A stretch of 64,000 bases of DNA from Steroidobacteraceae bacterium (GCA_049841155.1 JASGHI010000004.1:433477-497476), one strand, 5' to 3'; shown: positions 7,986 to 19,824, numbered from the stretch's first letter. Translations and numbers: made by a program. Notes: generated from the sequence alone by a model not told the origin.

Positions 7986-8042
7986 CGCGCTGGCAGGCCG
8001 GCCGGAATCGCGGAGCAATGCGGGACCCCTGATGAGGCCGTG

Positions 8043-8076
8043 ATCTGCGCGGCGTGGCGGTCTGCGCCGCGCAGAT
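8043..8076. terminator. 12-bp perfect hairpin between convergent deaD and the DUF1428 gene (possible bidirectional terminator)
   Basis: ATCTGCGCGGCG (8043-8054), a 10-nt loop, then CGCCGCGCAGAT (8065-8076). No clear U-tract. Confidence 0.4.
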
Positions 8077-8100
8077 GCTCGCGATGAGCCCGAAGCGGCT

Positions 8101-8463
8101 TCAGGAAGAGGAAACCACGGTCTTGAAGCCGCCCCAGAACATGCGCTTGCCATCAAACGGCATGTTGTCCGGGCCATAGCCCTGCATGCGTGGGTCGCTC
8201 ATGACCTTCTTCATCACCTGGTCGCGGTGACGGCGTGACTTGTACACCGCCCAGGAGAACCACACCTCTTCGCCGGCCTTGAGTTTCACCGCCTGCGGAA
8301 ACGAGGTGAGCTTGCCAGGCTGCACGTCATCGGCCACGCACTCGTGATATTCCAGCGCGCCGTGGTCCAGCCAGACCTTGCGGCCCAGCCGTGCCATTTT
8401 CAGGTAGGCGGCGCGATTCTTCTTCGGCACCGGGAGGATGAAGCCATCTACGTAGCGAGCCAT
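8101..8463 (-). CDS. DUF1428-family small protein
   Basis: 120 aa, MARYVDGFILPVPKKN...YLKMA pattern typical of DUF1428. Function unknown. Confidence 0.7.
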   Translation of the reverse strand: MARYVDGFILPVPKKNRAAYLKMARLGRKVWLDHGALEYHECVADDVQPGKLTSFPQAVKLKAGEEVWFSWAVYKSRRHRDQVMKKVMSDPRMQGYGPDNMPFDGKRMFWGGFKTVVSSS

Positions 8464-8681
8464 GGAAGTCTCCTTGTTTCAGCAGGAACCCGGGAGGGCA
8501 CTGGCATGACGACGATCGACGACCCGGGATTTCGACAGCAGTTCTTCTCCCGTACCGCACTATTCGGCATCATGAAGACCTCGCGTATCCTGCCTGATGA
8601 CAGGCCCCGCGATTCTGGTTTCCGTCTTGCGCCTCACAGCAAGACCCCATGGATGGCATGAATTGATGGTGGGAGACGCAA

Positions 8682-10244
8682 ATGACCACGATGTGGAGAG
8701 TGTTGGCGCTGGCCTGCGCCATTGCAGTGTTCCCGCCGCTGGCCGCGGCGCAGGTGGCCACGGTGGCCGAAGGCGCATTGTCCGGAATGCAGGAGCGGGA
8801 TGTCTCCGTCTTCTACGGAGTTCCGTTCGCTGCGCCGCCCGTCGGAGCGTTGCGCTGGGCCGCGCCGCAACCTGCGGTGGCCTGGCAGGGGCCGCGAGCG
8901 GCGAACCGCCTTCCGGCCAGCTGCCCGCAGGTGCTGATGCCCGATGGATTCATGATGTACACCCGGGAGTACCTCACGCCGGCGCCGCCCGGGGTCAGTG
9001 AGGACTGCCTGTTCGCGAACATCTGGACACCGCAGCTGCCCGGCAGCACCCAGGCGCGCGCTGCGTTGCCGGTGCTGGTGTTCATCCACGGTGGCGGCTA
9101 CACCTCGGGTTCCGGCACGGTGCCCATCTACAACGGCGCAAATCTGGCTCGCAAGGAGCTGGTGGTCGTCACGATCAACTACCGGTTGAGTGCGCTGGGC
9201 TTCCTTGCGCATCCGGAGCTCACGGCCGAACAGGGCGGCGCTTCCGGCAACTACGCGATACAGGACCAGATTCAGGCGCTGCGCTGGATCCAGCGCAACA
9301 TCGCCGCCTTCGGCGGCGATCCCTCGAAGGTGACGATCGCAGGCCAGTCCGCCGGCGCCGGTTCGGTATTGGCGCTGCTCGTTTCGCCGCAGGCCAAGGG
9401 GTTGTTCCGAAACGCCCTCGTGCAGAGTGCGCCGGGGATGGGCGACTACCCGCTGCTGACGCAAGCCGAACAGCGCGGCGCGGCATTGTTGCGGAGCTGG
9501 GGTGTGGATTCCATTGCCGCGGCGCGCGCGCTGCCGGCGGAGAAGCTTGCGGTACCAGCCGGTCCCGCGGGCGGCGGTTCGATGATCGCAGACGGCAAGG
9601 TGATTCCCCGTGTACCGTCACCACCGCTGATGGCCAGTGATGTGCCGGTGATGGTGGGATACACCTTCAACGACCTGTTCGCGGTCACGCGCAAGCTCAC
9701 TGCGGCGCAATGGCAGGTCGAGGCGCGGCAGCGCTATGGTGGCCGCGCCGCCGAGTTCCTGCGCTACTATCCGGGCGGCACGGACGCCGAAGCTTCGCGC
9801 TCCGCGACCCGTGAATCGGTGGATCGCAGCCAGATGGCGCCGATACTGCAATGGATGGCCACACGGGGAGCGAACAGCCCCGTGTACGCCTACCTCTTCA
9901 GCCATGTTGAGCCGGGCCCGAAGTCTGCCGAGTACGGTGCATTCCATTCCTCGGACTTGCCCTACATGTTCGACACGCTGAGCATGTCCCCGGAGCGGAA
10001 CTTCACGGAGGTAGACCGCCGCGTCGTCGAGCAGTTCGGTGGAGCCGTGGTCAATTTCGTCAAGACTGGCAAGCCCGAAGGCGGCTCGGTGCCTGCGTGG
10101 CCCGCGCTGACGCAACAGGGCAAGGCGGTGATGGAGTTCGGCGATGAGGCGCGCCTGGTGCGCGTATATCCAGCCGGTGCCGATGCTGTGATGGCAGCCG
10201 GCCGTGCGCCGCAGGGTCCGCCTGCAGGCGCTCATGCCGAATAG
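8682..10244 (+). CDS. Secreted type-B carboxylesterase (para-nitrobenzyl esterase-like)
   Basis: 520 aa with a signal peptide (...PPLAAAQV), the oxyanion motif FIHGGGYTSGSG and the nucleophile elbow GQSAGAGS. Confidence 0.85.
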   Translation: MTTMWRVLALACAIAVFPPLAAAQVATVAEGALSGMQERDVSVFYGVPFAAPPVGALRWAAPQPAVAWQGPRAANRLPASCPQVLMPDGFMMYTREYLTPAPPGVSEDCLFANIWTPQLPGSTQARAALPVLVFIHGGGYTSGSGTVPIYNGANLARKELVVVTINYRLSALGFLAHPELTAEQGGASGNYAIQDQIQALRWIQRNIAAFGGDPSKVTIAGQSAGAGSVLALLVSPQAKGLFRNALVQSAPGMGDYPLLTQAEQRGAALLRSWGVDSIAAARALPAEKLAVPAGPAGGGSMIADGKVIPRVPSPPLMASDVPVMVGYTFNDLFAVTRKLTAAQWQVEARQRYGGRAAEFLRYYPGGTDAEASRSATRESVDRSQMAPILQWMATRGANSPVYAYLFSHVEPGPKSAEYGAFHSSDLPYMFDTLSMSPERNFTEVDRRVVEQFGGAVVNFVKTGKPEGGSVPAWPALTQQGKAVMEFGDEARLVRVYPAGADAVMAAGRAPQGPPAGAHAE

Positions 10245-10373
10245 GCTCTGAACTCCCGAGCGTTGTGTTATCGCAACGCTTCCCAAGTCTTCGGCATATC
10301 TCAATTAGATGCTTTTACTTCATAATGGTGATAATAGTTGGCGTGACGAGCTGAAGTTCAAATCCGGGGGGTT

Positions 10374-10955
10374 ATGTCTGACATTAGAGTGGAAGTTCTA
10401 AGCAGGCGCAGCCTTATGGCGGGCGGCACGTCGGTGATCGCGGGGTTGTTGCTGGATGGAGCGTGGCTGTCGCAGGCGCATGCGGCCGGTGCGCGTTACC
10501 AGTCCGATCCGCGTCATGCCTTCGCCGACCGGATCAGCGATTTGTTGATACCCACCACGGATACGCCTGGTGCGTCCGCCGCGGGTGTTGCGGGTTTCGT
10601 GTTGCTGGCGCTGGACAGCGGCGTGAGCGGCCTGAAGCCGGCGTTGCTGGATGCGGTGCAAGCTGAGCTGGATGCGTCCGCTGGCGGAAAGTTCGTGGGT
10701 CGGCCTCGCAATCGCCAGGCCGGGTTGCTTGCGGAGCTGGACCGCAAGGCGTTTGCGGCGGCAAGTCCGGCGGAAAATTCGGCGGAATTTGCATGGCGGC
10801 GGATCAAGTCAGCGATTGTTGCCGGCTACTACACCAGCGAGATCGGTGGGTCGAAAGAGCTGATCTACGAGCCGGTGCCCGGCAAATTCGAGAACATCGC
10901 GCTGACGGCTGAATACCGTGCTCGTTCCAATGACGGTCAGGGAGGGGCTATCTAA
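10374..10955 (+). CDS. Tat-signal small subunit, gluconate 2-dehydrogenase subunit-3 family
   Basis: 193 aa with a twin-arginine motif (SRRSLMAGG). Its stop overlaps the start of the GMC flavoprotein gene (ATCTAATG), the typical pairing for this family. Confidence 0.7.
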   Translation: MSDIRVEVLSRRSLMAGGTSVIAGLLLDGAWLSQAHAAGARYQSDPRHAFADRISDLLIPTTDTPGASAAGVAGFVLLALDSGVSGLKPALLDAVQAELDASAGGKFVGRPRNRQAGLLAELDRKAFAAASPAENSAEFAWRRIKSAIVAGYYTSEIGGSKELIYEPVPGKFENIALTAEYRARSNDGQGGAI

Positions 10956-12631
10956 TGCCAGACTTCGACGCCATCGTCGCCGGCTCCGGTATCACCGGCG
11001 GGTGGGCGGCCAAGGAACTTACCGAGCGCGGCCTGAAAGTGCTGATGATCGAGCGTGGCCCGAATCTCGAGCATCGTACCGACTACAAGACCGAGTTTAC
11101 GCCTCCGTGGGAGCTGGACTTCCGCGGCTACACCGATCCCAAGTTGCTGGCGGGTTCGAAGCGCGTGCAGAAGTACTCGCGCATGAACGAGTGGGTCAAG
11201 GACATGTTCGTCGATGACGACATCGAGACCTACCAGACGCCCCCCGAGAGCAACTTCCGCTGGATGCGCGGCTACCACCTCGGGGGTCGTTCCGTGATGT
11301 GGGGCCGGCACAGTTATCGCATGAGCGAGGCCCATTTCGCGGCCAATGCCAATGACGGCCATGGCGTGGATTGGCCCGTGCGGTATCGGGACGTCGCGCC
11401 CTGGTACGACCATGTCGAGCAGTTTATTGGAGTCAACGGGACCGTCGATGGCATTGCCAGCTTGCCGGACGGCAAATATCAGCCCTCGATGGGCTTCAAT
11501 GCCGGCGAGCAACGGCTGGCGGATCTCATCAGGGCCAAGTATCCGGACCGTCGCCTGCTGCCGGGCCGCACAGCGAACCTCACCAAAGCGATCGGTGATC
11601 GTTCTCCATGCCAATATCGCAACCAGTGCGGGCGCGGATGCTCGTACGGGGCGTATTTCAGCACGCAAAGCTCCACCTTGCCCGCGGCGCGGGCCACGGG
11701 GCTGCTCACATTGCTGACTGACACGATCGTCGAAACGGTTGATCATGATCCGAAGACCAGGCGTGCCACCGGCGTAAGGTTGCGCAACGTCAATACGGGC
11801 GAGCGTTCCACGGCCACAGCGAAAATCATTTTTCTCTGCGCCGGGTCGGTCAACAGCGTGGCGATACTGTTGCGCTCGGTATCCGAGACGATGCCGGGTG
11901 GTCTGGGCAACTCGGGCGGTGTGTTGGGCAAATACTTCATGGACCATGCTTTCGGCCCCAACGTAACCTCGACCATACCGGGCCTCGGTGATCGCATGTA
12001 CCTCGGGCGCAAGCCCAACGGGCTTACCATGCCGCGTTTCGTCAACATGTCCGGGCAGGAGACGGATTTCCTGCGCGGCTATGCCTTTCAGGGAGGAGGC
12101 CAGCGGCAGGGATGGAGCCGCGGCGGCAATCTTCCCGGCATAGGTAGTGATTTCAAGCACCAGTTGCGGCAACCGGGTGAGTGGATGATATCGCTGGAGC
12201 CCTCCATCGAGTGTCTGCCCCGCAAGGAGAACGCGATCACTGTCGATTTCCGCAAACCGGACAAGCACGGCCTGCCCACAATTCGTATCGATCTGCGCTG
12301 GAGCGACAATGAGCAGAAAGCCGCCGTGCATGCGGTGAACGAGGCAAAGGCGATACTGTCGTTGCTCGGCGGCCAGATAACCAATGCCCGCGCGGAGATT
12401 GCGCCGCCGGGCACGGCGATCCACGAGATGGGCGGGGCATGCATGGGTCGGGATCCGCGTACCTCGGTGACCAATGCCTACAACCAGGTGCATGACGCTC
12501 TGAATGTATTCGTCACCGACGGCGCCTGCATGTCGTCGACAGGGGACCGCAATCCTTCGCTGACCTACATGGCGTTGACGGCCCGTGCCGCAGCCGCGGC
12601 GGTGGATATGTTCAAGCAGGGCACTCTGTGA
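10955..12631 (+). CDS. GMC-family FAD dehydrogenase large subunit (gluconate 2-dehydrogenase flavoprotein-like)
   Basis: 558 aa with N-terminal AIVAGSGITGGWAAKEL FAD motif and the C-terminal GMC block (IHEMGGACMG...FVTDGA). No signal peptide of its own, so probably co-exported with the Tat subunit. Confidence 0.8.
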   Translation: MPDFDAIVAGSGITGGWAAKELTERGLKVLMIERGPNLEHRTDYKTEFTPPWELDFRGYTDPKLLAGSKRVQKYSRMNEWVKDMFVDDDIETYQTPPESNFRWMRGYHLGGRSVMWGRHSYRMSEAHFAANANDGHGVDWPVRYRDVAPWYDHVEQFIGVNGTVDGIASLPDGKYQPSMGFNAGEQRLADLIRAKYPDRRLLPGRTANLTKAIGDRSPCQYRNQCGRGCSYGAYFSTQSSTLPAARATGLLTLLTDTIVETVDHDPKTRRATGVRLRNVNTGERSTATAKIIFLCAGSVNSVAILLRSVSETMPGGLGNSGGVLGKYFMDHAFGPNVTSTIPGLGDRMYLGRKPNGLTMPRFVNMSGQETDFLRGYAFQGGGQRQGWSRGGNLPGIGSDFKHQLRQPGEWMISLEPSIECLPRKENAITVDFRKPDKHGLPTIRIDLRWSDNEQKAAVHAVNEAKAILSLLGGQITNARAEIAPPGTAIHEMGGACMGRDPRTSVTNAYNQVHDALNVFVTDGACMSSTGDRNPSLTYMALTARAAAAAVDMFKQGTL

Positions 12632-12747
12632 GAGGCGCCACTCGGGAAAGTTCAGCCCAATCCGGGGCGGGTGCGGGAGCGGTGCCCCGGGTATTGAGGT
12701 GGGGGCCGAGCGTCCGCAGCACGTGTGCCGCGCAGCCGCGGCAGCAG

Positions 12748-12792
12748 TTGTCGAGCCGCGGCGCACGGGACTATACTGTATCGTATGGGCAG
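12748..12792 (+). promoter_or_regulatory. Putative sigma70-type promoter of module A (TTGTCG-N18-TATACT, then ATGGGCAG)
   Basis: -35-like 12748-12753 and -10-like 12772-12777. The architecture repeats at 15756-15801 upstream of the paralogous gene. Confidence 0.45.
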
Positions 12793-12835
12793 GAAGCGTT
12801 CCGCCTGAATCCGGCAATCGCAAGAGGTATGCGCC

Positions 12836-13252
12836 ATGGTTAGCAAGAAATCGGCAGCGCTGGTGCTGGTCGCCCTGCTGGGGGCGGCGGCTGCACAGGC
12901 GCATCATTCGTTTTCGTCCACTTTCGATGCGCACAAGCCTATCGAGATCACCGGTGTGATCACCAAGGTGGAATGGATCAACCCGCACAGTTATGTCCAC
13001 ATGGACGTGAAGGACAAGAGCGGCAAGACGGTGCCGTGGGCCTTCGAGAGCCTGCCACCGGCGATGTTCAAGCGCGCCGGGCTGAAAAAAGAGATGCTGC
13101 CCATCGGCTCCACCGTGACCATCACGGGCTTCGGCGCGAAGGACGGCACACAGGCGCTGGGCTGGATCAAGAAGTTCAAGTTCGCCGATGGCCGCGAGAT
13201 CCAGGTGACGGCTGATAATCCGAGCGACGCCAATTTCGTCGACGTCCACTAG
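12836..13252 (+). CDS. Exported DUF6152-like protein, copy A (predicted mature N-terminus HHSFS)
   Basis: 138 aa. Signal peptide ends AAQA, followed by HHSFSSTFD. Shares HHSFS..FD..KP..TK.E.INPH..V..DV...VTI.GF..DG...ADG with the copy at 15849-16241. Confidence 0.75.
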   Translation: MVSKKSAALVLVALLGAAAAQAHHSFSSTFDAHKPIEITGVITKVEWINPHSYVHMDVKDKSGKTVPWAFESLPPAMFKRAGLKKEMLPIGSTVTITGFGAKDGTQALGWIKKFKFADGREIQVTADNPSDANFVDVH

Positions 13253-13280
13253 CACGCGCGCCTACCGGGGGGATTACAAC

Positions 13281-14141
13281 ATGATCATCAGACTGCGATT
13301 GGGTGAGGCGCTGGCGGCGGCGGTGTTGGCGGCGCCGCTGCTGGTTCTGGGCGCTGAAGGTGGCGGTAATGCGATGCAGGAGCGCGTTGCGCAGGAAGCA
13401 GCCAAACCGACACCGAAAACGGCATCGGGCGTGCCGGATCTGAGCGGCTACTGGAGCGTCGTGGGCGGGTTCGTCAACCCGAGCGCTATTCCGGGCACGG
13501 CGGTGACCGCCGACGGCACGACCACACGGCCGATCGCCGGCGCAGAGATCGAGGAGCACCAGGGCAACAAGGCGGGTGTCGCGCGTCGTCTGGCCGATAC
13601 CGCGGCCCGGCCGACGTACAAGCCACAGTTCGACGTCAAGGCGAAGGCCAACTGGGATCGTGCCAATTTCCTCGATCCCGGCTATAGCTGTCAGCCGCTG
13701 GGCGTGCCGCGCATCGGCGTACCGAACGAGATCGTGCAGACTCCGACGACGCTGTACTTCCTGTATCAGAACCACAACATCTACCGCGTCGTGCATCTCG
13801 ACCGCGGTCACGACCCGGATGCCGAACGCCTGCCCATGGGCGAATCGGTCGGCCGCTGGGAGGGCGATACACTGGTGGTCGACGTGACCTCGCTCCCGGA
13901 GGGGGACGAGACCTGGCTGGATGGCGATGGCTCGTACCACAGCGCGGACATGCACGTGATCGAGCGCTTCACCCGCAAGGGCAACACGCTGAACTACGCG
14001 CTGACGGTCGAGGACCCGATCTTCGCCGCGCCGTTCACGCCCAAGCCCAAGACGCTGCTGCTAGGCAACGAACACGTCGGCGAAGACTACCCATGCACGG
14101 AGAGGGACCTGCCGCACATGGTGACCAAGGAGCGTCACTGA
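13281..14141 (+). CDS. Secreted protein of unknown function, 'WEGDTLV' family, paralogue 1
   Basis: 286 aa with an N-terminal signal. Motifs PDLSGYW, C..LGVPR, YRVV, GRWEGDTLVVDV, WLD..G..H...MHVIERFT and YPCTE are shared with 16318-17160 and 17168-18427. Confidence 0.7.
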   Translation: MIIRLRLGEALAAAVLAAPLLVLGAEGGGNAMQERVAQEAAKPTPKTASGVPDLSGYWSVVGGFVNPSAIPGTAVTADGTTTRPIAGAEIEEHQGNKAGVARRLADTAARPTYKPQFDVKAKANWDRANFLDPGYSCQPLGVPRIGVPNEIVQTPTTLYFLYQNHNIYRVVHLDRGHDPDAERLPMGESVGRWEGDTLVVDVTSLPEGDETWLDGDGSYHSADMHVIERFTRKGNTLNYALTVEDPIFAAPFTPKPKTLLLGNEHVGEDYPCTERDLPHMVTKERH

Positions 14142-14293
14142 GCCAGATGCGCGGTTGAGGGACGCGCGGCAGCGGCGCCTATTGTCCGCATGACCCGTGG
14201 CGCAGCAGGCATGAAGCGTCACGGGTCCATCGCTGCCGGCATCTGCGGACCCGTCCAGGAATTGAATACAAGAGCCGTCTTGGGGGAGCCGTA

Positions 14294-14800
14294 GTGCTGG
14301 AACAACTCTCGAACCTGCCTTTGTCCGTGTGGATCCGTGAGTCCACGGACATCTATGCCTTCACGCTGATCCTGACGCTCCATGCCATCGGGCTGGCAAC
14401 GGTGGTGGGTATCAGCACGGTGGTCGGACTGCGGCTGCTGGGAGTGGGCCCCGGCATTCCGCTGGTGCTCCTGAAGCGCTTCTTCCGCGTGCTGTACGTC
14501 GGCTTCTGGATCAATGCGGTTTCGGGGCTGATGCTGTTCATCGCCGAGCCGGTGAAGATGGTGGAGATGCCGGCCTTCTGGGCCAAGATGTTCTTCATCG
14601 CCTGCGGCCTGGTGGTGGTGCGCCTGCTCACGGTGCGCGTATTCAGTGACGCGCAGATGATGGCCAGCAACATTCCGAACCAGCAGGCGCGCAGGCTCGC
14701 GTGGGCGTTGCTGGGGTGCTGGTACATGGCGCTGATCGTCGGACGGCTCACGGGCTATCCGGAGATGGTCGGTCAGATGCTCAGGGCCATCGGCCTGTAA
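14294..14800 (+). CDS. 4-TM integral membrane protein, unknown function (paralogue of the next gene)
   Basis: 168 aa, GTG start preceded by GGGGGAG. Four hydrophobic helices. The TM1 motif LHAIGLATVVG....LRLLG is shared with the next ORF. Confidence 0.65.
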   Translation: MLEQLSNLPLSVWIRESTDIYAFTLILTLHAIGLATVVGISTVVGLRLLGVGPGIPLVLLKRFFRVLYVGFWINAVSGLMLFIAEPVKMVEMPAFWAKMFFIACGLVVVRLLTVRVFSDAQMMASNIPNQQARRLAWALLGCWYMALIVGRLTGYPEMVGQMLRAIGL

Positions 14801-14815
14801 GCGGGGAGGGAGCGG

Positions 14816-15334
14816 ATGGACTGGTTCAGACACATTCTCGATATCCACGCGATGCAGGCCTATGTGAACGGTCACGCCTGGGTGTGGTCGGTATGCGAGA
14901 TGATCCACTACGTGGGCATGTCGCTGATCGTCGGCCTGATCGGGCTGCTGGATCTGCGCATCCTCGGCTTCTGCAAGAGTCTGCCGATCGGCGCGCTCAA
15001 GCCTTTCGTGCCCATCGCCATTGCCGGCTTCGTCGCCAACCTGATCACGGGCTTCATATTCGTCTCCGGCAATCCGGTGGGCGGGCCGGGCGCCTACCTC
15101 GACAACCTGTCATTCCAGTGCAAGCTGGTGGTGCTGGGGATCGCGTTCATCAACCTGGTCATCTTCCGGCTCACGGGGCTCGAGCACGAGGTTTACGCCA
15201 CACCAGCCAACGGCGATGCACCGGGCAGCGCTAAAGTGATCGCGGTCGTCTCCCTCCTCAGCTGGGCGTTCATCATCTTCTTCGGCCGCATGCTGATGTA
15301 CAACGACACGCTGCTGCTGTTCCTGGGACTTTGA
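14816..15334 (+). CDS. 4-TM integral membrane protein, unknown function (paralogue of the previous gene)
   Basis: 172 aa with RBS GGGAGGGAG. TM1 IHYVGMSLIVG....LRILG, GF..N...G in TM2, F..K in TM3 and GR...Y in TM4 all align with the previous ORF. Confidence 0.65.
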   Translation: MDWFRHILDIHAMQAYVNGHAWVWSVCEMIHYVGMSLIVGLIGLLDLRILGFCKSLPIGALKPFVPIAIAGFVANLITGFIFVSGNPVGGPGAYLDNLSFQCKLVVLGIAFINLVIFRLTGLEHEVYATPANGDAPGSAKVIAVVSLLSWAFIIFFGRMLMYNDTLLLFLGL

Positions 15335-15347
15335 TCCGGCACCGCCT

Positions 15348-15366
15348 GCGCCGCCGGTCGCGGCGC
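15348..15366. terminator. Short GC hairpin between the convergent membrane-protein gene and the HiPIP gene
   Basis: GCGCCGC-cggtc-GCGGCGC (7-bp stem) lies in the 45-nt convergent spacer. Confidence 0.3.
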
Positions 15367-15379
15367 GGGTGGCGTTACG

Positions 15380-15703
15380 CTAGCGGCTGCCGCGCAGCTT
15401 CCAGAGCTTGCACCATCCGGCGGCGTTCACCAGGCGGCCGGGCACAATGGAGCAGCCGCGCTGGCGTCCCGAGCCGAATTCGATGAACGAACAGGTTGTG
15501 CAGCTCTGTCCGCGTTTGTAGGTGGGATGGGTGCCCACGTTCACCGTCTTGGCGTCCGCGACATAATCAATGGTCCTGGCCGCCGGTTCTTTCTCGTCCA
15601 GCGGCGTACGTGCTGCCGCTGCGGCCAGCGCCCAGCGCGGGGCGCTGATCGTCGCGGCCAGCGCGAGTGCGCGCAGCAGTCTGCGTCGTGCGATGAAGCT
15701 CAT
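15380..15703 (-). CDS. High-potential iron-sulfur protein (HiPIP), Tat-exported
   Basis: 107 aa. Twin-arginine signal (ARRRLLRALALAA). Cys pattern C-x2-C-x12-C-x13-C with the last Cys preceded by Trp (GWC), diagnostic of a HiPIP [4Fe-4S] site. Confidence 0.85.
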   Translation of the reverse strand: MSFIARRRLLRALALAATISAPRWALAAAAARTPLDEKEPAARTIDYVADAKTVNVGTHPTYKRGQSCTTCSFIEFGSGRQRGCSIVPGRLVNAAGWCKLWKLRGSR

Positions 15704-15755
15704 GTGCGGGATTGTAGCAATCCGCGCGGCGTGCAGGCCGCGCGTACGTGAATGG

Positions 15756-15801
15756 TTGTGGCCGTGCCGCTCAATACGTTATAGTATGGAAAAATGGGCA
15801 G
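15756..15801 (+). promoter_or_regulatory. Putative sigma70-type promoter of module B (TTGTGG-N18-TATAGT, then ATGGGCAG)
   Basis: -35-like 15756-15761 and -10-like 15780-15785. The ATGGGCAG motif at 15794-15801 matches 12785-12792, and the downstream leader shares GCG.TT.CGCC and AATCG blocks with module A. Confidence 0.45.
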
Positions 15802-15848
15802 CGCGATTTTCGCCGCTGCATCGTGGGGGAATCGTCATCGGAGGGTTT

Positions 15849-16241
15849 ATGAGCACTTTGCGTCGTGTATGGATCGCGGGCGCCGTGCTGCAGCTGGGAG
15901 TCATGGCTGCAGCGCAGGCGCATCATTCGTTTTCGGCGGTGTTCGATGGCACCAAGCCCGTTACCCTCGACGGCACCGTCACCAAGTTCGAGTTCATCAA
16001 TCCGCACGGATGGGTGACATTGGACGTGCCTGGCGCTGCCGGTACACCGGCGGCCACGTGGCGTGTCGAGGTGGCCAACCCGAACGCGCTGATCCGCCTC
16101 GGCTGGCGCAAGGACAGCCTCAAGCCGGGCGACAAGGTCACCATTCAGGGCTTCCGCTCGCACGATGGTTCGAACACCGCCTTCGGCAAGGAGTTCAAGC
16201 TGGCGGACGGCAAGACCGTGCTGAACAGCGTGGCTCCGTAG
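15849..16241 (+). CDS. Exported DUF6152-like protein, copy B (predicted mature N-terminus HHSFS)
   Basis: 130 aa, RBS GGAGGG. Signal peptide ...MAAAQA followed by HHSFSAVFD. The 21-nt stretch caggcgcatcattcgttttcg is identical to copy A. Confidence 0.75.
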   Translation: MSTLRRVWIAGAVLQLGVMAAAQAHHSFSAVFDGTKPVTLDGTVTKFEFINPHGWVTLDVPGAAGTPAATWRVEVANPNALIRLGWRKDSLKPGDKVTIQGFRSHDGSNTAFGKEFKLADGKTVLNSVAP

Positions 16242-16317
16242 ACGCACAACCCACAAGAGGCAGTACCCGATGAGGCAGCAGACTGTCCGCCCGGATGGCG
16301 GCGCAAGGGGAGGGAGC

Positions 16318-17160
16318 ATGCGCAGCATGCATCTGATTGGCATTTGCGCCGCGTTGGCGCTCGGTGCGGCCGCGAGCGTCGCGTCGGCCTATTCGCCGGG
16401 CAAGCTTTACGACGGCAAGACGCCGGATCTGCGCGGCATCTGGCAGGCACGCGGCACGGCGTACGTGAACATCGAAGGCCACAAGGGCGGCAAGGGCGTG
16501 GCCCCGTCGCGGAGCATCATCGTCGATCCCGCGGACGGCAAGATTCCGTACAAGCCGGAGGCGCTGGCCAAGCGCGACGAGAACTTCAGGAATCGCAACG
16601 AGGCCGACCCATCGCTGCGCTGCAGCCAGGCGGGCGTGCCGCGCATCACCTATCTGCCGACGCCGTTCCAGATCGTGCAATCGCCGGGGTACACGGCCTT
16701 CGTGTATCAGGACAACCACTCCTACCGCATCATCTATCCGAGCACCAAGCCGCACCTCACCGGCGTCGACTGGTGGATGGGCGACTCGCGCGGCCACTGG
16801 GAGGGCGACACGCTCGTGGTCGATGTCACGACGCAGAACGACCTGACGTGGCTGGACGCCTCCGGCAACCCTCACAGCAGTGACATCCACGTGGTCGAGC
16901 GCTACACGCCGACAGGCCCCGACACGATGACCTATGAGGCGCGCATCGAGGATCCGAACACCTACACCAGGCCCTGGACGCTGCGCACGACGCTCTACCG
17001 CAACACGGCCAAAGGCGCGCGCATCATCGAAGACGAGTGCCTGGAGGACATCCATGGCGTGTTCCGGCACATCTCGCCGACCGATCCGGCCAACCTCCTC
17101 CGCAACAACTATCGGCGCTGGTTGCTGCCCGCCGATGGCGCAGCGCCGGCCAACAAGTGA
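16318..17160 (+). CDS. Secreted protein of unknown function, 'WEGDTLV' family, paralogue 2
   Basis: 280 aa from the ATG at 16318 (RBS GGGAGGGAG), with a signal peptide ...ASVASA. Motifs PDLRGIW, C..AGVPR, YRII, GHWEGDTLVVDV, WLD..G..H...IHVVERYT and DECLE. Confidence 0.7.
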   Translation: MRSMHLIGICAALALGAAASVASAYSPGKLYDGKTPDLRGIWQARGTAYVNIEGHKGGKGVAPSRSIIVDPADGKIPYKPEALAKRDENFRNRNEADPSLRCSQAGVPRITYLPTPFQIVQSPGYTAFVYQDNHSYRIIYPSTKPHLTGVDWWMGDSRGHWEGDTLVVDVTTQNDLTWLDASGNPHSSDIHVVERYTPTGPDTMTYEARIEDPNTYTRPWTLRTTLYRNTAKGARIIEDECLEDIHGVFRHISPTDPANLLRNNYRRWLLPADGAAPANK

Positions 17161-17167
17161 GCCACCC

Positions 17168-18427
17168 ATGAATACTCGCGAACAGTTCATGCAGAGGATG
17201 ACGCTGATGGCGGCCGTCGCGACCATCGCGCTGGCCGGCCTGGTGCAGAGCGCAGCGGCGCAAGTGGCGGTCCAGGGTACGGTAACGGCGGCGCCGGAGG
17301 AGGCGGCTGCTCTGCCCATTCCGCGTCTGCCGGACGGCAAGCCGGATTTCCAGGGCACCTGGTACAAGTCGCGCGGCTATCAGCCCAATGGCACGGTCGT
17401 CGTCGCGCCCGGCGGCGGCCGCGCCGCCGCCGAGCCGGGTAATACGGCTGGCAATCAGCCTCAGGGTGGTGCCGGTGCGGCGGCCGGCGGTGGTGGTGCC
17501 GCCGGCACGGGGCCCAATCCGTTCGGCCTCTCGTCGGCCGAGAACGCCGAAGTGTTCCTGCTGCACGGGGTGAAGATCCCGTACCGGCCCGAGGCCATGC
17601 AGGAGAAGCGCTGGCGCGCCGTCAACCAGTATCTCGACGGCGAGCCGCGCTGCCACCTCGCCGGCGTGCCGCGCTCGGCCGAGCAGCCGCCGTATCCGCA
17701 CATGATCATCCAGGACGACAAGACCGTCACCATCCTGTACGAATACGTGCACGAGCCGCGCATCATTCCGATTACCAGCGAGCCGCACCCGAAGAATTAC
17801 CGCGCGTGGGACGGCGATTCGCGGGCCCACTGGGAGGGCGATACGCTGGTCATCGACGTCAGCAACTTCAACGGCCGCAGCTGGCTCGACATGACCGGCA
17901 ACTTCGTCGATGAAAACCTGCACGTGGTCGAGCGCTACACGATGACGAGCGGCAACACCTATCTGTACGAAGCGATCCTGACCGATCCGACCGTTTTCAC
18001 TGAGCCGTTGAAGATCAGTTTCGAGTTGGTGCGCCAGAAGGACGAGGACCAGATCATCGAATACAGCTGCCTCGAGGGGGAGAGTGACCGCCAGCATTAC
18101 ACCGCGCAGACCGGCGGCGTGAAGGCCGACGCGTTCCGGGATACCGCCGTCAGCACCGTAGTGCATGCCGGCGAAGCGACGAGTGTGCATGGCTGCCTGC
18201 GCGGCGATCTGGTCGATGGTGCGGTGAAGTACTCGCTGGAACTGCGCCCGAAGGGCAAGGTGCCGGTGAGCCTTGCCGCTGGCGCACAGCAGGGTCTGCG
18301 TGAACTGGTCGATCGCGACGTGTGGCTGAACGGCTCGTGGAAGGCACAGCCCGGCAAATCACCGTTCGAGGTGACCAGCGCGCGGGCTCAAGCCGAAGGC
18401 TGCGCCTGGGACGGCAAGAGTCCGTGA
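17168..18427 (+). CDS. Secreted protein of unknown function, 'WEGDTLV' family, paralogue 3 (Gly/Ala-rich insert and extra C-terminal domain)
   Basis: 419 aa. Signal ...QSAAAQ. Motifs PDFQGTW, C.LAGVPR, PRII, AHWEGDTLVIDV, WLD..G......LHVVERYT and YSCLE. Roughly 100 extra C-terminal residues. Confidence 0.7.
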   Translation: MNTREQFMQRMTLMAAVATIALAGLVQSAAAQVAVQGTVTAAPEEAAALPIPRLPDGKPDFQGTWYKSRGYQPNGTVVVAPGGGRAAAEPGNTAGNQPQGGAGAAAGGGGAAGTGPNPFGLSSAENAEVFLLHGVKIPYRPEAMQEKRWRAVNQYLDGEPRCHLAGVPRSAEQPPYPHMIIQDDKTVTILYEYVHEPRIIPITSEPHPKNYRAWDGDSRAHWEGDTLVIDVSNFNGRSWLDMTGNFVDENLHVVERYTMTSGNTYLYEAILTDPTVFTEPLKISFELVRQKDEDQIIEYSCLEGESDRQHYTAQTGGVKADAFRDTAVSTVVHAGEATSVHGCLRGDLVDGAVKYSLELRPKGKVPVSLAAGAQQGLRELVDRDVWLNGSWKAQPGKSPFEVTSARAQAEGCAWDGKSP

Positions 18428-19824
18428 GCAGCTACCAGCCGCCGCAGAGCGCCGGCGGGCCGCCGACGGGCCCGGCAGCGCAGGCTGCCGGGACGGCGCG
18501 CGGCGGCTGGTATCTGGTGAGTGTGCTGCTGGTCTGCTACACGTTCTCGTTCATCGACCGGCAGATCCTCAGCCTGCTGGTCGGGCCCATCAAGCGTGAC
18601 CTTGCGATCAGCGACACGATGATGGGCCTGCTGCAGGGTTTTGCCTTCGCGCTGTTCTACACGCTGATGAGCATCCCGCTGGGGCGCATCGGCGACATCG
18701 GCAACCGGCGCAAGCTCATCGCCGCCGGTGTGCTCGTCTGGAGTCTGATGACCTCGGCCTGCGCGCTGGCGCGCAGCTACACGTCGCTGTTCCTGACGCG
18801 CATCGGCGTCGGCATCGGCGAGGCGGCGCTGTCGCCCGCCGCATTCTCGATGATCACCGACACCTTCCCGCGCGAGCGGCTGTCGGGCGCGCTCAGCGTG
18901 TACTCGATGGGCATCTTCATCGGCTCGGGGCTGGCGCTGATGGTCGGCGGCATCATCGTGCAGGCCACCAGCACCATGTCGGCGATCACACTGCCGATCT
19001 TCGGCAGCATGTCCGCGTGGCGCCTGACCTTCCTGGTCGTGGGCCTGCCCGGCCTTCTGATCGCGCTGTGGGTGCTCACGCTGCGCGAGCCGGCGCGCCG
19101 CGGCCTGCTGCGGCGTGCAGCGAGCGAGAGCCGTCACCTGTCGATCGGCGAGACCTTCGCGCAGATCCGCATGCGCTGGGGTTCGTTCATCGGCCTGTCG
19201 CTGGGCATGATCTTCCAGTCGATGGTGGTGTTCGCGTTCATGGCGTGGACGCCGGCATTCTTTCAGCGCATCCATCACTGGAGTCCCAGGCAGACGGGCC
19301 AGGTGCTGGGCCTGCTGATACTGGTCTTCGGCTGCCTCGGCATGTACGTCGGCGGTCGGCTGTCGGACCGGTGGAAGCGCGCCGGCCAGCACGATGCGGC
19401 ACTGAAGGTCACCGTCATCAGCGCGCTCGGCTGCGGCCTGTTCTTCGTGCCGGCGTACTTGATCGACGATCCGGTGTGGACGGTGGTGCTGCTGGCGCCG
19501 GCGCTGTTCTTCGAAGGCATGCCGGTGGGCAGCGCCTTCGCTGCGGTGCAGCTCATCTTTCCGAACCAGGTGCGCGCCTCGGCCTCAGCGTTGTTCATGT
19601 TCATGCTGAACCTGGGCGGCCAGACGCTGGGACCGCTGCTGCCGGCGCTGTTCAATGACGACGTGTTCCATTCGGAGCTGGCGCTGGGCAAGTCGCTGGC
19701 CATCACCATGGCCATCGCTTCGCTCGGCATGCTGGTCATCATGTCGCTGACGCGCGCGCCGTATCGCCGGCACTACGAGGAGCTGCTGCCGCAACTCTCC
19801 GACGTGCCGCCCGCCGGCCACTGA
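18424..19824 (+). CDS. MFS transporter
   Basis: About 466 aa from the GTG at 18424, which overlaps the upstream stop (GTGA). 12 predicted TM helices and the MFS loop motif GRIGDIGNRRK. The upstream part of the tracked ORF overlaps the previous gene and was trimmed. Confidence 0.8.
   Translation: MSSYQPPQSAGGPPTGPAAQAAGTARGGWYLVSVLLVCYTFSFIDRQILSLLVGPIKRDLAISDTMMGLLQGFAFALFYTLMSIPLGRIGDIGNRRKLIAAGVLVWSLMTSACALARSYTSLFLTRIGVGIGEAALSPAAFSMITDTFPRERLSGALSVYSMGIFIGSGLALMVGGIIVQATSTMSAITLPIFGSMSAWRLTFLVVGLPGLLIALWVLTLREPARRGLLRRAASESRHLSIGETFAQIRMRWGSFIGLSLGMIFQSMVVFAFMAWTPAFFQRIHHWSPRQTGQVLGLLILVFGCLGMYVGGRLSDRWKRAGQHDAALKVTVISALGCGLFFVPAYLIDDPVWTVVLLAPALFFEGMPVGSAFAAVQLIFPNQVRASASALFMFMLNLGGQTLGPLLPALFNDDVFHSELALGKSLAITMAIASLGMLVIMSLTRAPYRRHYEELLPQLSDVPPAGH

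Follow-up and report, generated by a model that had tools for sequence, protein, structure and literature searches.

The 64,000-nucleotide stretch of DNA analyzed here (Steroidobacteraceae bacterium, JASGHI010000004.1:433477-497476; the window) carries three paralogous genes, at 13281-14141, 16318-17160 and 17168-18427, of an unnamed protein family, predicted to be exported, that was given the working name W. By structural modeling, W proteins are placed as calycin/FABP-like 10-strand barrels with a helical lid, at fold level only. W and the family DUF6152 are patchily distributed, were expanded in a lineage-specific manner and are inherited together. As judged from sequence, the common unit consists of DUF6152 and two distinct W genes, W1 and W2, and paralogues 2 and 3 are assigned as such a W1/W2 pair. 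W barrels were tentatively read as the subunits that hold a ligand in a metal-dependent redox complex of the periplasm, a reading that is given somewhat less than an even chance of being correct.

Open reading frames (ORFs) were confirmed at the three positions, all on the + strand, with translations of 286, 280 and 419 amino acids (aa), and paralogues 1, 2 and 3 matched the public proteins P0121, P0001 and P0241, respectively (100% identity and coverage). An earlier reading of the same DNA (the sequence-only reading) had reported three paralogous ORFs at these coordinates, and this was borne out by BLASTP: paralogues 1 and 2 were 40% identical (E 4e-33), paralogues 2 and 3 were 43% identical (E 5e-38) and paralogues 1 and 3 were 31% identical (E 2e-19). 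The three proteins are homologous, with similarity far above chance. The motifs listed in that reading were located at aa 52, 36 and 59 of paralogues 1, 2 and 3 for PD(L/F)xGxW, at aa 137, 102 and 162 for CxxxGVPR, at aa 193, 161 and 222 for WEGDTLV(V/I)DV and at aa 272, 241 and 301 for the second-Cys motif CxE, with WLD and then HV(I/V)ER(F/Y)T also present in all three. The whole set was found in the same order in each protein, but the Tyr or Glu described two residues before the second Cys did not hold for paralogue 2, where the context is DECLE and the residue is Asp. All three proteins matched the W profile, carried the two conserved Cys and the GxWEGDTLVxD core, and were encoded adjacent to DUF6152. 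Signal peptides, assessed by eye, had a Sec-type appearance with neither a twin arginine nor a lipobox, and W proteins are accordingly described here as predicted to be exported.

Exactly two Cys are present in the mature W barrel of each paralogue. In paralogue 2 numbering, C102 was found in 100% and C241 in at least 90% of 73 diverse homologs, and two Cys were present in 48 of 48 and 44 of 44 paralogues of the same genome that aligned at those columns. This pattern plausibly fits a disulfide. In the model of paralogue 2 (described below), the first conserved Cys comes directly behind the helices that succeed the initial strands, the second belongs to one of the final strands, and a C102-C241 disulfide could plausibly staple these two regions together. 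Conservation at or above 80% among 49 W paralogues of the genome was also seen for D97, G106, R137, G155, E194, D212 and P219, for an Asp about 5 residues past R137 (41 of 49), and for part of the motif GxWEGDTLVxD(T/V). No His was conserved in at least 80% of these 49 paralogues, and the catalytic or metal site of conserved His, Glu and Asp that had been suggested for W is, in its His-based form, unsupported; the invariant His residues sit in the DUF6152 partner.

Paralogues 1-3 were scanned against Pfam and NCBIfam and gave no match at E up to 1, and sequence searches of the PDB with a 3-sequence and a 73-sequence profile gave no match at E up to 10. All database names seen for W relatives were "hypothetical protein", in agreement with the earlier description of an uncharacterized exported family. 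PF19649, the DUF6152 model, did not match any of paralogues 1-3; DUF6152 is the partner of W and not its own family. Word-seeded searches with the three proteins retrieved at least 7,989, at least 4,375 and at least 1,538 relatives, and an exhaustive profile search retrieved 19,909 clusters (50% identity) at E up to 1e-3 and 11,220 at E up to 1e-10. W is spread over at least three phyla, with carriers among GTDB genomes that include Terriglobia, Bryobacterales, Vicinamibacterales, Gemmatimonadota, many Gammaproteobacteria, Rhodospirillaceae, Methylomonas methanica and Derxia lacustris.

A model of paralogue 2 was built with AlphaFold2 on an alignment of the 73 sequences (predicted local distance difference test, pLDDT, 85; predicted template modeling score, pTM, 0.81) and contained the N-terminal strand or strands, a helical segment (80-112) and ten strands (117-252). 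When the model was compared with the PDB by Foldseek, only FABP, CRBP, CRABP and myelin P2 structures were returned (probability ~1, template modeling score 0.5-0.58 on target), in alignments covering the entire FABP. These matches and the ten modeled strands form the basis for the placement of W as a calycin/FABP-like barrel. The structural hallmark of the FABP/iLBP group, a 10-strand antiparallel barrel with a helix-turn-helix lid between strands A and B, is seen in the paralogue 2 model; the corresponding sequence family (Lipocalin, PF00061) was not detected in Pfam at E up to 1, nor any PDB chain at E up to 10. The sequence-only reading had been unable to assign W to a known fold, and this is overturned by the Foldseek comparison. 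The match is at superfamily level and leaves the locus unexplained, so that W has not been moved into a characterized family whose function would account for its surroundings.

Paralogue 3 starts 7 nucleotides past the stop codon of paralogue 2 and carries, besides a W2-type barrel (~aa 55-310), two further elements that had been noticed earlier and were both confirmed. The Gly/Ala-rich insert, first put at about 17400-17530, was placed at 17411-17524 (+ strand, aa 82-119) and is predicted to be disordered; its equivalent in a model of the related protein P0243 (349-377) had pLDDT <50. The additional C-terminal domain (~aa 335-419; 18170-18424, + strand) was found to be kept in at least 21 homologs with the motif GCLRG...ELiDReVr.nG.W...EGC, and contains a conserved Cys pair of its own (C343 and C412, in GCLRG...EGC). 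P0243 (669 aa) consists of an ortholog of paralogue 2 (66% identity, residues 13-279) fused in frame to an ortholog of paralogue 3 (56% identity, residues 329-669), Gly/Ala linker and extra domain included. Residues 587-659 of the P0243 model, within the 56% identical region, were arranged as strand 1-2-3-helix-strand 4-5 (pLDDT ~90), and Foldseek matched this C-terminal domain to the LysRS N-terminal OB domain and to SSB (probability 1.0, root mean square deviation 3.3 Å over 83 residues). By modeled structure only, and with no sequence family, the extra domain of paralogue 3 is assigned as an OB-fold. A fused DUF6152 was considered for this domain and rejected (DUF6152 hidden Markov model E >0.9; hhalign probability 0.4%). 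The complete P0243 fusion model had a pTM of 0.78 with 124 residues at pLDDT <50 (long disordered linkers), which is consistent with a defined packing of the two barrels.

Each W block of the window has a DUF6152 gene directly upstream. The first copy (D1; 12836-13252, + strand; PF19649, E 1.7e-27) has an AQA/HHSF junction, with a predicted mature start of HHSFS, and is separated by a 28-nucleotide gap from paralogue 1, a single W barrel (13281-14141, + strand). The second copy (D2; 15852-16241, + strand; E 1.1e-30) has the same predicted mature start and precedes paralogue 2 (16318-17160), a W1-type barrel, and paralogue 3 (17168-18427). In all 30 DUF6152 ORFs of the genome a signal peptide is followed by HHS (29) or HHT (1). 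From this junction the mature protein is predicted to start with His-His, and such a start would likely constitute a transition-metal site; chelation of Ni, Co or Cu has been shown for exported proteins whose N-terminal residue is His, regardless of fold (PMC12537917).

The linkage between the two families extends over the genome (3.1 Mb), in which 50 W matches and 31 DUF6152 matches were found. Of the 50 W, 44 have a DUF6152 no more than 3 kb away; conversely, 29 of the 31 DUF6152 have a W at that distance or less. Together they form 29 clusters. W is the largest paralogous family of this genome (49-50 copies, roughly 2% of ~2,450 called genes) and DUF6152 is the fourth largest. One W copy (C3:2065244-2065768, - strand) contains an in-frame TAG, and a DUF6152 fragment (C4:6435-6554, + strand) that scored below the family cut-off contains an in-frame TGA; both are likely decaying copies within the expansion. 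Pairwise distances of DUF6152 paralogues correlated with those of the W paralogues next to them (r 0.43, permutation p 5e-4), so the modules diverge as units.

Phylogenetic profiling against DUF6152, which the sequence-only reading had proposed, was carried out on 31 related genomes, among them 18 other species of the same genus and members of 12 other families of the order, and near-perfect co-occurrence was obtained: presence or absence of W and DUF6152 was concordant in 30 of the 31. All 18 other species of the genus carried both (8-37 W matches, 7-31 DUF6152 matches). Among the 12 other families W was found in a single genome, G176, with at least 78 W matches and 101 DUF6152 matches; the remaining sampled genomes of the order had neither family, save for one weak DUF6152 match. 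G176 (4.7 Mb, 2 contigs) yielded its W count from 78 scored of 205 first-look candidates, and had only 35 TonB Plug matches. The proposal that W is common in the class of the host was rejected, as it was present in 0 of 150 other taxonomic families sampled, which included the one other genus of the host's family.

Gene order was compared in 80 loci from other genomes (Acidobacteriota, Gemmatimonadota, and Alpha-, Beta- and Gammaproteobacteria) that were picked by similarity to paralogue 2. DUF6152 (D in the orders below) was present in 64 and two or more W ORFs in 75, and the commonest same-strand orders were WWD (30), WW (18) and DWW (15). Clean triads provided 90 W domains for a tree, in which 42 of the 45 upstream genes fell with paralogue 2 in one clade (W1); the downstream genes fell elsewhere, and paralogue 1 lay outside the W1 clade. 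Fusions of two W domains accounted for 76-79 of the 495 homologs collected, and D and W shared one stop-free reading frame in three cases among the 80 loci (two in L022 and one in L074). Some W-W fusions from Acidobacteriota (L089 10546-14270 and L046 6687-7796) adjoin HXXSHH (DUF1552) and PSD/PSCyt (DUF1592/1588/1585) pairs and ankyrin-repeat proteins.

Between the two W blocks of the window lie genes that suggest electron transfer. Two adjacent genes on the + strand encode DUF6644-like proteins with four transmembrane (TM) segments: the first (14294-14800) matches PF20349 at E 0.0023, short of the family cut-off, and its TM1 contains a conserved His, and the second (14816-15334) is its paralogue and retrieved the same 20 loci by jackhmmer. 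They are followed on the - strand by HiPIP, a soluble one-electron carrier (15380-15703; PF01355, E 3.2e-17). With M for the DUF6644-like genes, the window thus reads D>W>M>M>, HiPIP on the opposite strand, and then D>W>W>. When neighbors were clustered in the 80 loci, DUF6644 was the commonest (19 loci), followed by pyrroloquinoline quinone (PQQ) dehydrogenases (13), ankyrin proteins (8) and cytochrome c'-like proteins (6), with short-chain dehydrogenases/reductases (SDRs), barrels like those of TonB-dependent receptors (TBDR-like), amidases, PSCyt-type and Cu2_monoox-like proteins ranking lower. The more sensitive jackhmmer search placed DUF6644 in 20 of the 80 loci, with exactly two copies in 18, and a cytochrome c'-like gene (c; C-terminal CxxCH) was present in 16 of these 20. 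At least one neighbor of redox type (DUF6644, PQQ dehydrogenase, cytochrome-like or Cu2_monoox-like) was found in 34 of 80 loci. A neighbor of the last kind, encoded at L031 4120-5385, is a Cu2_monoox_C protein (copper type II ascorbate-dependent monooxygenase-like) with a weak haem-binding-domain match; such neighbors of W-W pairs were seen in 4 of the 80 loci.

Two orders recurred. One, often seen, is a single operon D>W>W>M>M>c, as in a Methylococcales metagenome-assembled genome, in Methylomonas methanica and in Derxia lacustris; in the other, from Gemmatimonadota and Acidobacteriota, W>W>D> converges with c<M<M<. HiPIP was found in none of the 80 loci, including the 20 with DUF6644. Set against the recurrent position of the cytochrome c'-like gene in related loci, the window order suggests that HiPIP stands in the place of the cytochrome, which seems to be a swap of carriers. 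The genome encodes six DUF6644-like proteins in three adjacent pairs (window 14294-15334; C3:170652-171672; C4:213535-214621), which share the TM1 His (H-x-[IV]-[GA]-[LM]) and a C-terminal GR[LM]; of the three pairs, only that of the window adjoins W/DUF6152 modules.

The association of DUF6644 and of cytochrome c'-like protein or HiPIP with the triad could also be accommodated if W held a cofactor, binding isoprenoid quinone or haem as YceI/X158 proteins do and passing electrons between D, the membrane proteins and either HiPIP or the cytochrome. Positions conserved across all W paralogues include polar ones, which fits one common ligand better than many, but 50 divergent paralogues per genome are hard to square with a single cofactor. 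YceI-like (PF04264) was not matched in Pfam at E up to 1 and no YceI was among the top 50 Foldseek matches, and Foldseek ranked 10-strand FABPs above 8-strand YceI or lipocalins for the paralogue 2 model. A conduit of this kind was considered very improbable.

Uptake, transport and catabolic genes were examined in a census of 209 genes lying within four genes of a module in the genome. They comprised 25 TonB-dependent receptors, 9 transporters of the major facilitator superfamily (MFS) and 7 aldehyde dehydrogenases, and also included FecR, ECF sigma factors and IclR/MarR/LysR regulators. In one receptor family, 19 of 44 members were located close to a module (p 8e-10), and four modules adjoined FecR/ECF/receptor sets. 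In the window, paralogue 3 is followed by an MFS transporter gene (MFS_1/OATP-like; 18424-19824, + strand; PF07690, E 1.1e-48) that overlaps the paralogue 3 stop in GTGA and is translationally coupled to it, and an MFS similar to it was found downstream of a D-W-W-D-W block in L085. Neighbors in other genomes included carboxylesterases, metallo-beta-lactamase, GCV_T, amidohydrolase, TBDR-like barrels and an MFS/OATP-like transporter. Upstream of the modules the window carries a type-B carboxylesterase (8682-10244, + strand) and a GMC oxidoreductase (GMC flavoprotein dehydrogenase). A metagenome contig (L081 1230-4631) has D-W-W/D-x-W blocks bordered by two type-B carboxylesterases, a metallo-beta-lactamase and a PETase-like hydrolase. 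Two W-W-D modules of the genome are adjoined by exported SRPBCC (Polyketide_cyc2) proteins, a second hydrophobic-ligand-binding fold (C3:1278177-1278674 and C3:341876-342385). An obligate one-to-one partnership between module and TonB receptor was rejected, since Plug counts (7-79) do not follow W/DUF6152 counts in the 31 genomes; the receptor link is therefore one of enrichment and not of obligate pairing. A scan of the window (8000-19000) with Rfam found no riboswitch, its sole match being a chance microRNA, and scans for sigma-70 promoters and terminators performed no better than on shuffled sequence.

These neighbors raise the alternative that W is a non-catalytic carrier which, with D as adaptor, binds poorly soluble substrates imported through TonB receptors and ferries them to the MFS transporter or to periplasmic enzymes, as a periplasmic counterpart of FABP. 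The likeness of the fold to the FABP/CRBP lipid carriers, the enrichment of receptors, MFS and regulators, the translational coupling of paralogue 3 to the MFS gene and the variety of catabolic neighbors elsewhere all agree with it, and W paralogues are more divergent than those of D (mean identity 30% vs 37%), as expected of specificity subunits. A carrier of this type leaves unexplained, however, both the invariant His-His start of DUF6152 and the recurrent DUF6644 pair with cytochrome c' or HiPIP; MFS transporters are not known to require binding proteins, and module and receptor numbers are decoupled. This alternative was judged unlikely.

Trafficking of metals or metallophores was considered as well, with D as a CopC/YcnI-type metallochaperone passing Cu, Ni or Fe to a CopD-like DUF6644, the cytochrome or HiPIP changing the redox state of the metal, and W binding the metallophore or scaffolding the transfer. 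The invariant His-His of DUF6152, the TM1 His of DUF6644 and the four modules beside FecR/ECF/receptor sets point in this direction, as does the precedent of the exported N-terminal-His proteins DUF4198 and Ang-1/2, which bind metals and are located on permeases or near TonB receptors (PMC12537917). Yet 30 to ~100 modules per genome far exceed any known metal-homeostasis system, the neighbors are mostly carbon-catabolic genes and regulators (aldehyde dehydrogenases, esterases, amidases, SDRs and PQQ dehydrogenases), and the Rfam scan yielded no known metal riboswitch at the locus. Metal trafficking was held to be quite improbable, though less so than the cofactor conduit.

The redox complex remains the preferred reading, and would work as follows. 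W would act only as the obligate partner of D and not alone, and mature D, starting with His-His, would supply a constant metal centre. Paralogues 2 and 3 would most likely form a two-barrel heterodimer, which with D2 would give a D:W1:W2 complex, and paralogue 1 and D1 would form a simpler D:W unit. The W barrels would be the variable subunits, each keeping a small molecule, hydrophobic or amphipathic, in place at the metal centre of D. The complex would be wired to an electron path through the DUF6644 pair and HiPIP (or, elsewhere, a cytochrome c'-like protein), and it is these electron-transfer neighbors that lead to its being read as a periplasmic metal-dependent redox enzyme. Substrates would enter via the TonB-dependent receptors and products would leave via the coupled MFS. 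What the analysis shows is the homology and size of the family, its fold, the gene linkage and co-occurrence, the fusions, the two W subfamilies and the neighbor statistics, from which export, the disulfide, complex formation, metal and ligand binding and redox chemistry are inferred. A broader claim is possible but doubtful, namely that D:W1:W2 forms the catalytic heart of a periplasmic oxidoreductase class which is widespread but undescribed. Its metal centre would be built on the N-terminal His-His of DUF6152, its substrates would be small molecules held in a double FABP-like barrel, and a DUF6644 heterodimer with cytochrome c' or HiPIP would power it as an electron path of its own from membrane to periplasm.

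Several results weigh against the redox complex or narrow its scope. The Foldseek matches of the paralogue 2 model are weak (E ~5e-3, none <1e-3) and hold at fold level only, and conserved residues of catalytic appearance are absent from W. DUF6644 or HiPIP lies beside only 1 of the 29 module clusters of the genome, that of the window, and such neighbors occur in only 25% of the loci elsewhere, so redox wiring may be limited to a subtype. Receptor and module counts are decoupled (35 Plug against 101 DUF6152 in G176), and ten receptor-rich relatives have no W. The W1/W2 tree result, and the neighbor counts with it, are biased because the 80 loci were selected by similarity to paralogue 2.

If the broader claim of an oxidoreductase class holds, bacteria of soil and water would owe a wide range of substrates to the 30-100 modules in each genome, comparable to what polysaccharide utilization loci (PULs) or P450 families provide. 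Should barrels, DUF6152, DUF6644 and the one-electron carrier prove to be one machine, it would represent new cell-envelope chemistry at the place where environmental bacteria take up organic matter, and might matter for how cells deal, between their two membranes, with compounds that are hydrophobic or recalcitrant. W is a family of ~20,000 clusters still without a Pfam model or a solved structure, and its partner families DUF6152 and DUF6644 were not named by any publication in the literature searched. Complete operons are available in the cultured strains Methylomonas methanica R-45363 and Derxia lacustris HL-12, and the natural fusions are ready constructs for structural work.

Among known systems, the predicted 10-strand antiparallel barrel of W, with a helical lid after the first strand, is most like FABP, CRBP, CRABP and myelin P2. 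W differs from that group in having no sequence similarity to it, in being exported rather than cytosolic, in being twice the size, with an N-terminal extension of ~70 aa, and in its conserved Cys pair, its W1/W2 pairs or fusions and its association with DUF6152. Searched with the P0243 fusion model, Foldseek gave as its top two matches DUF3598 (2o62) and BFA1 (5yvf), both two-barrel proteins; the structural match is very weak (probability 0.47-0.54, template modeling score 0.24-0.27, root mean square deviation ~22 Å), there is no sequence relation to W, and the biology is unrelated. At the level of the locus, SusC/SusD-type PULs and the receptor and MFS uptake route of Sphingobium are comparators for substrate utilization through TonB receptors. 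Like PUL-type loci, the W/DUF6152 modules form numerous paralogous cassettes in each genome, accompanied by receptors, regulators, inner-membrane transporters and an assortment of catabolic enzymes; unlike them, they are not one-to-one with receptors, and their proteins are predicted to be periplasmic and not surface lipoproteins. For DUF6152, the comparators are CopC/CopD or YcnI and the exported N-terminal-His metalloproteins. Of the latter, DUF4198, DUF6702 and Ang-1/Ang-2 share with it the N-terminal His (a predicted His-His in DUF6152) and links to TonB receptors and small membrane proteins (PMC12537917). DUF6152 is not mentioned in that study, and none of these comparator families has an obligate barrel partner or reaches 30-100 copies per genome.

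The remaining comparison is with the polyisoprenoid- and quinone-binding barrels of YceI/X158 proteins, to which W has no detectable homology and from which it differs in barrel type, in having DUF6152 and not a lytic polysaccharide monooxygenase (LPMO) as its partner, and in having DUF6644 as its membrane partner. The E. coli YceI-YceJ pair is an exported barrel encoded with a cytochrome partner. The likeness lies in the combination of an exported barrel with membrane or c-type cytochrome partners, which in Cellvibrio serves an N-terminal-His copper protein (PMC8981238). There, the YceI-like quinone-binding barrel and the c-type cytochrome domains of Cbp2D/E reduce N-terminal-His copper LPMOs (PMC8981238). 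Cbp2D/E are the nearest parallel to the W/DUF6152 module, by analogy of parts only and not in ancestry.

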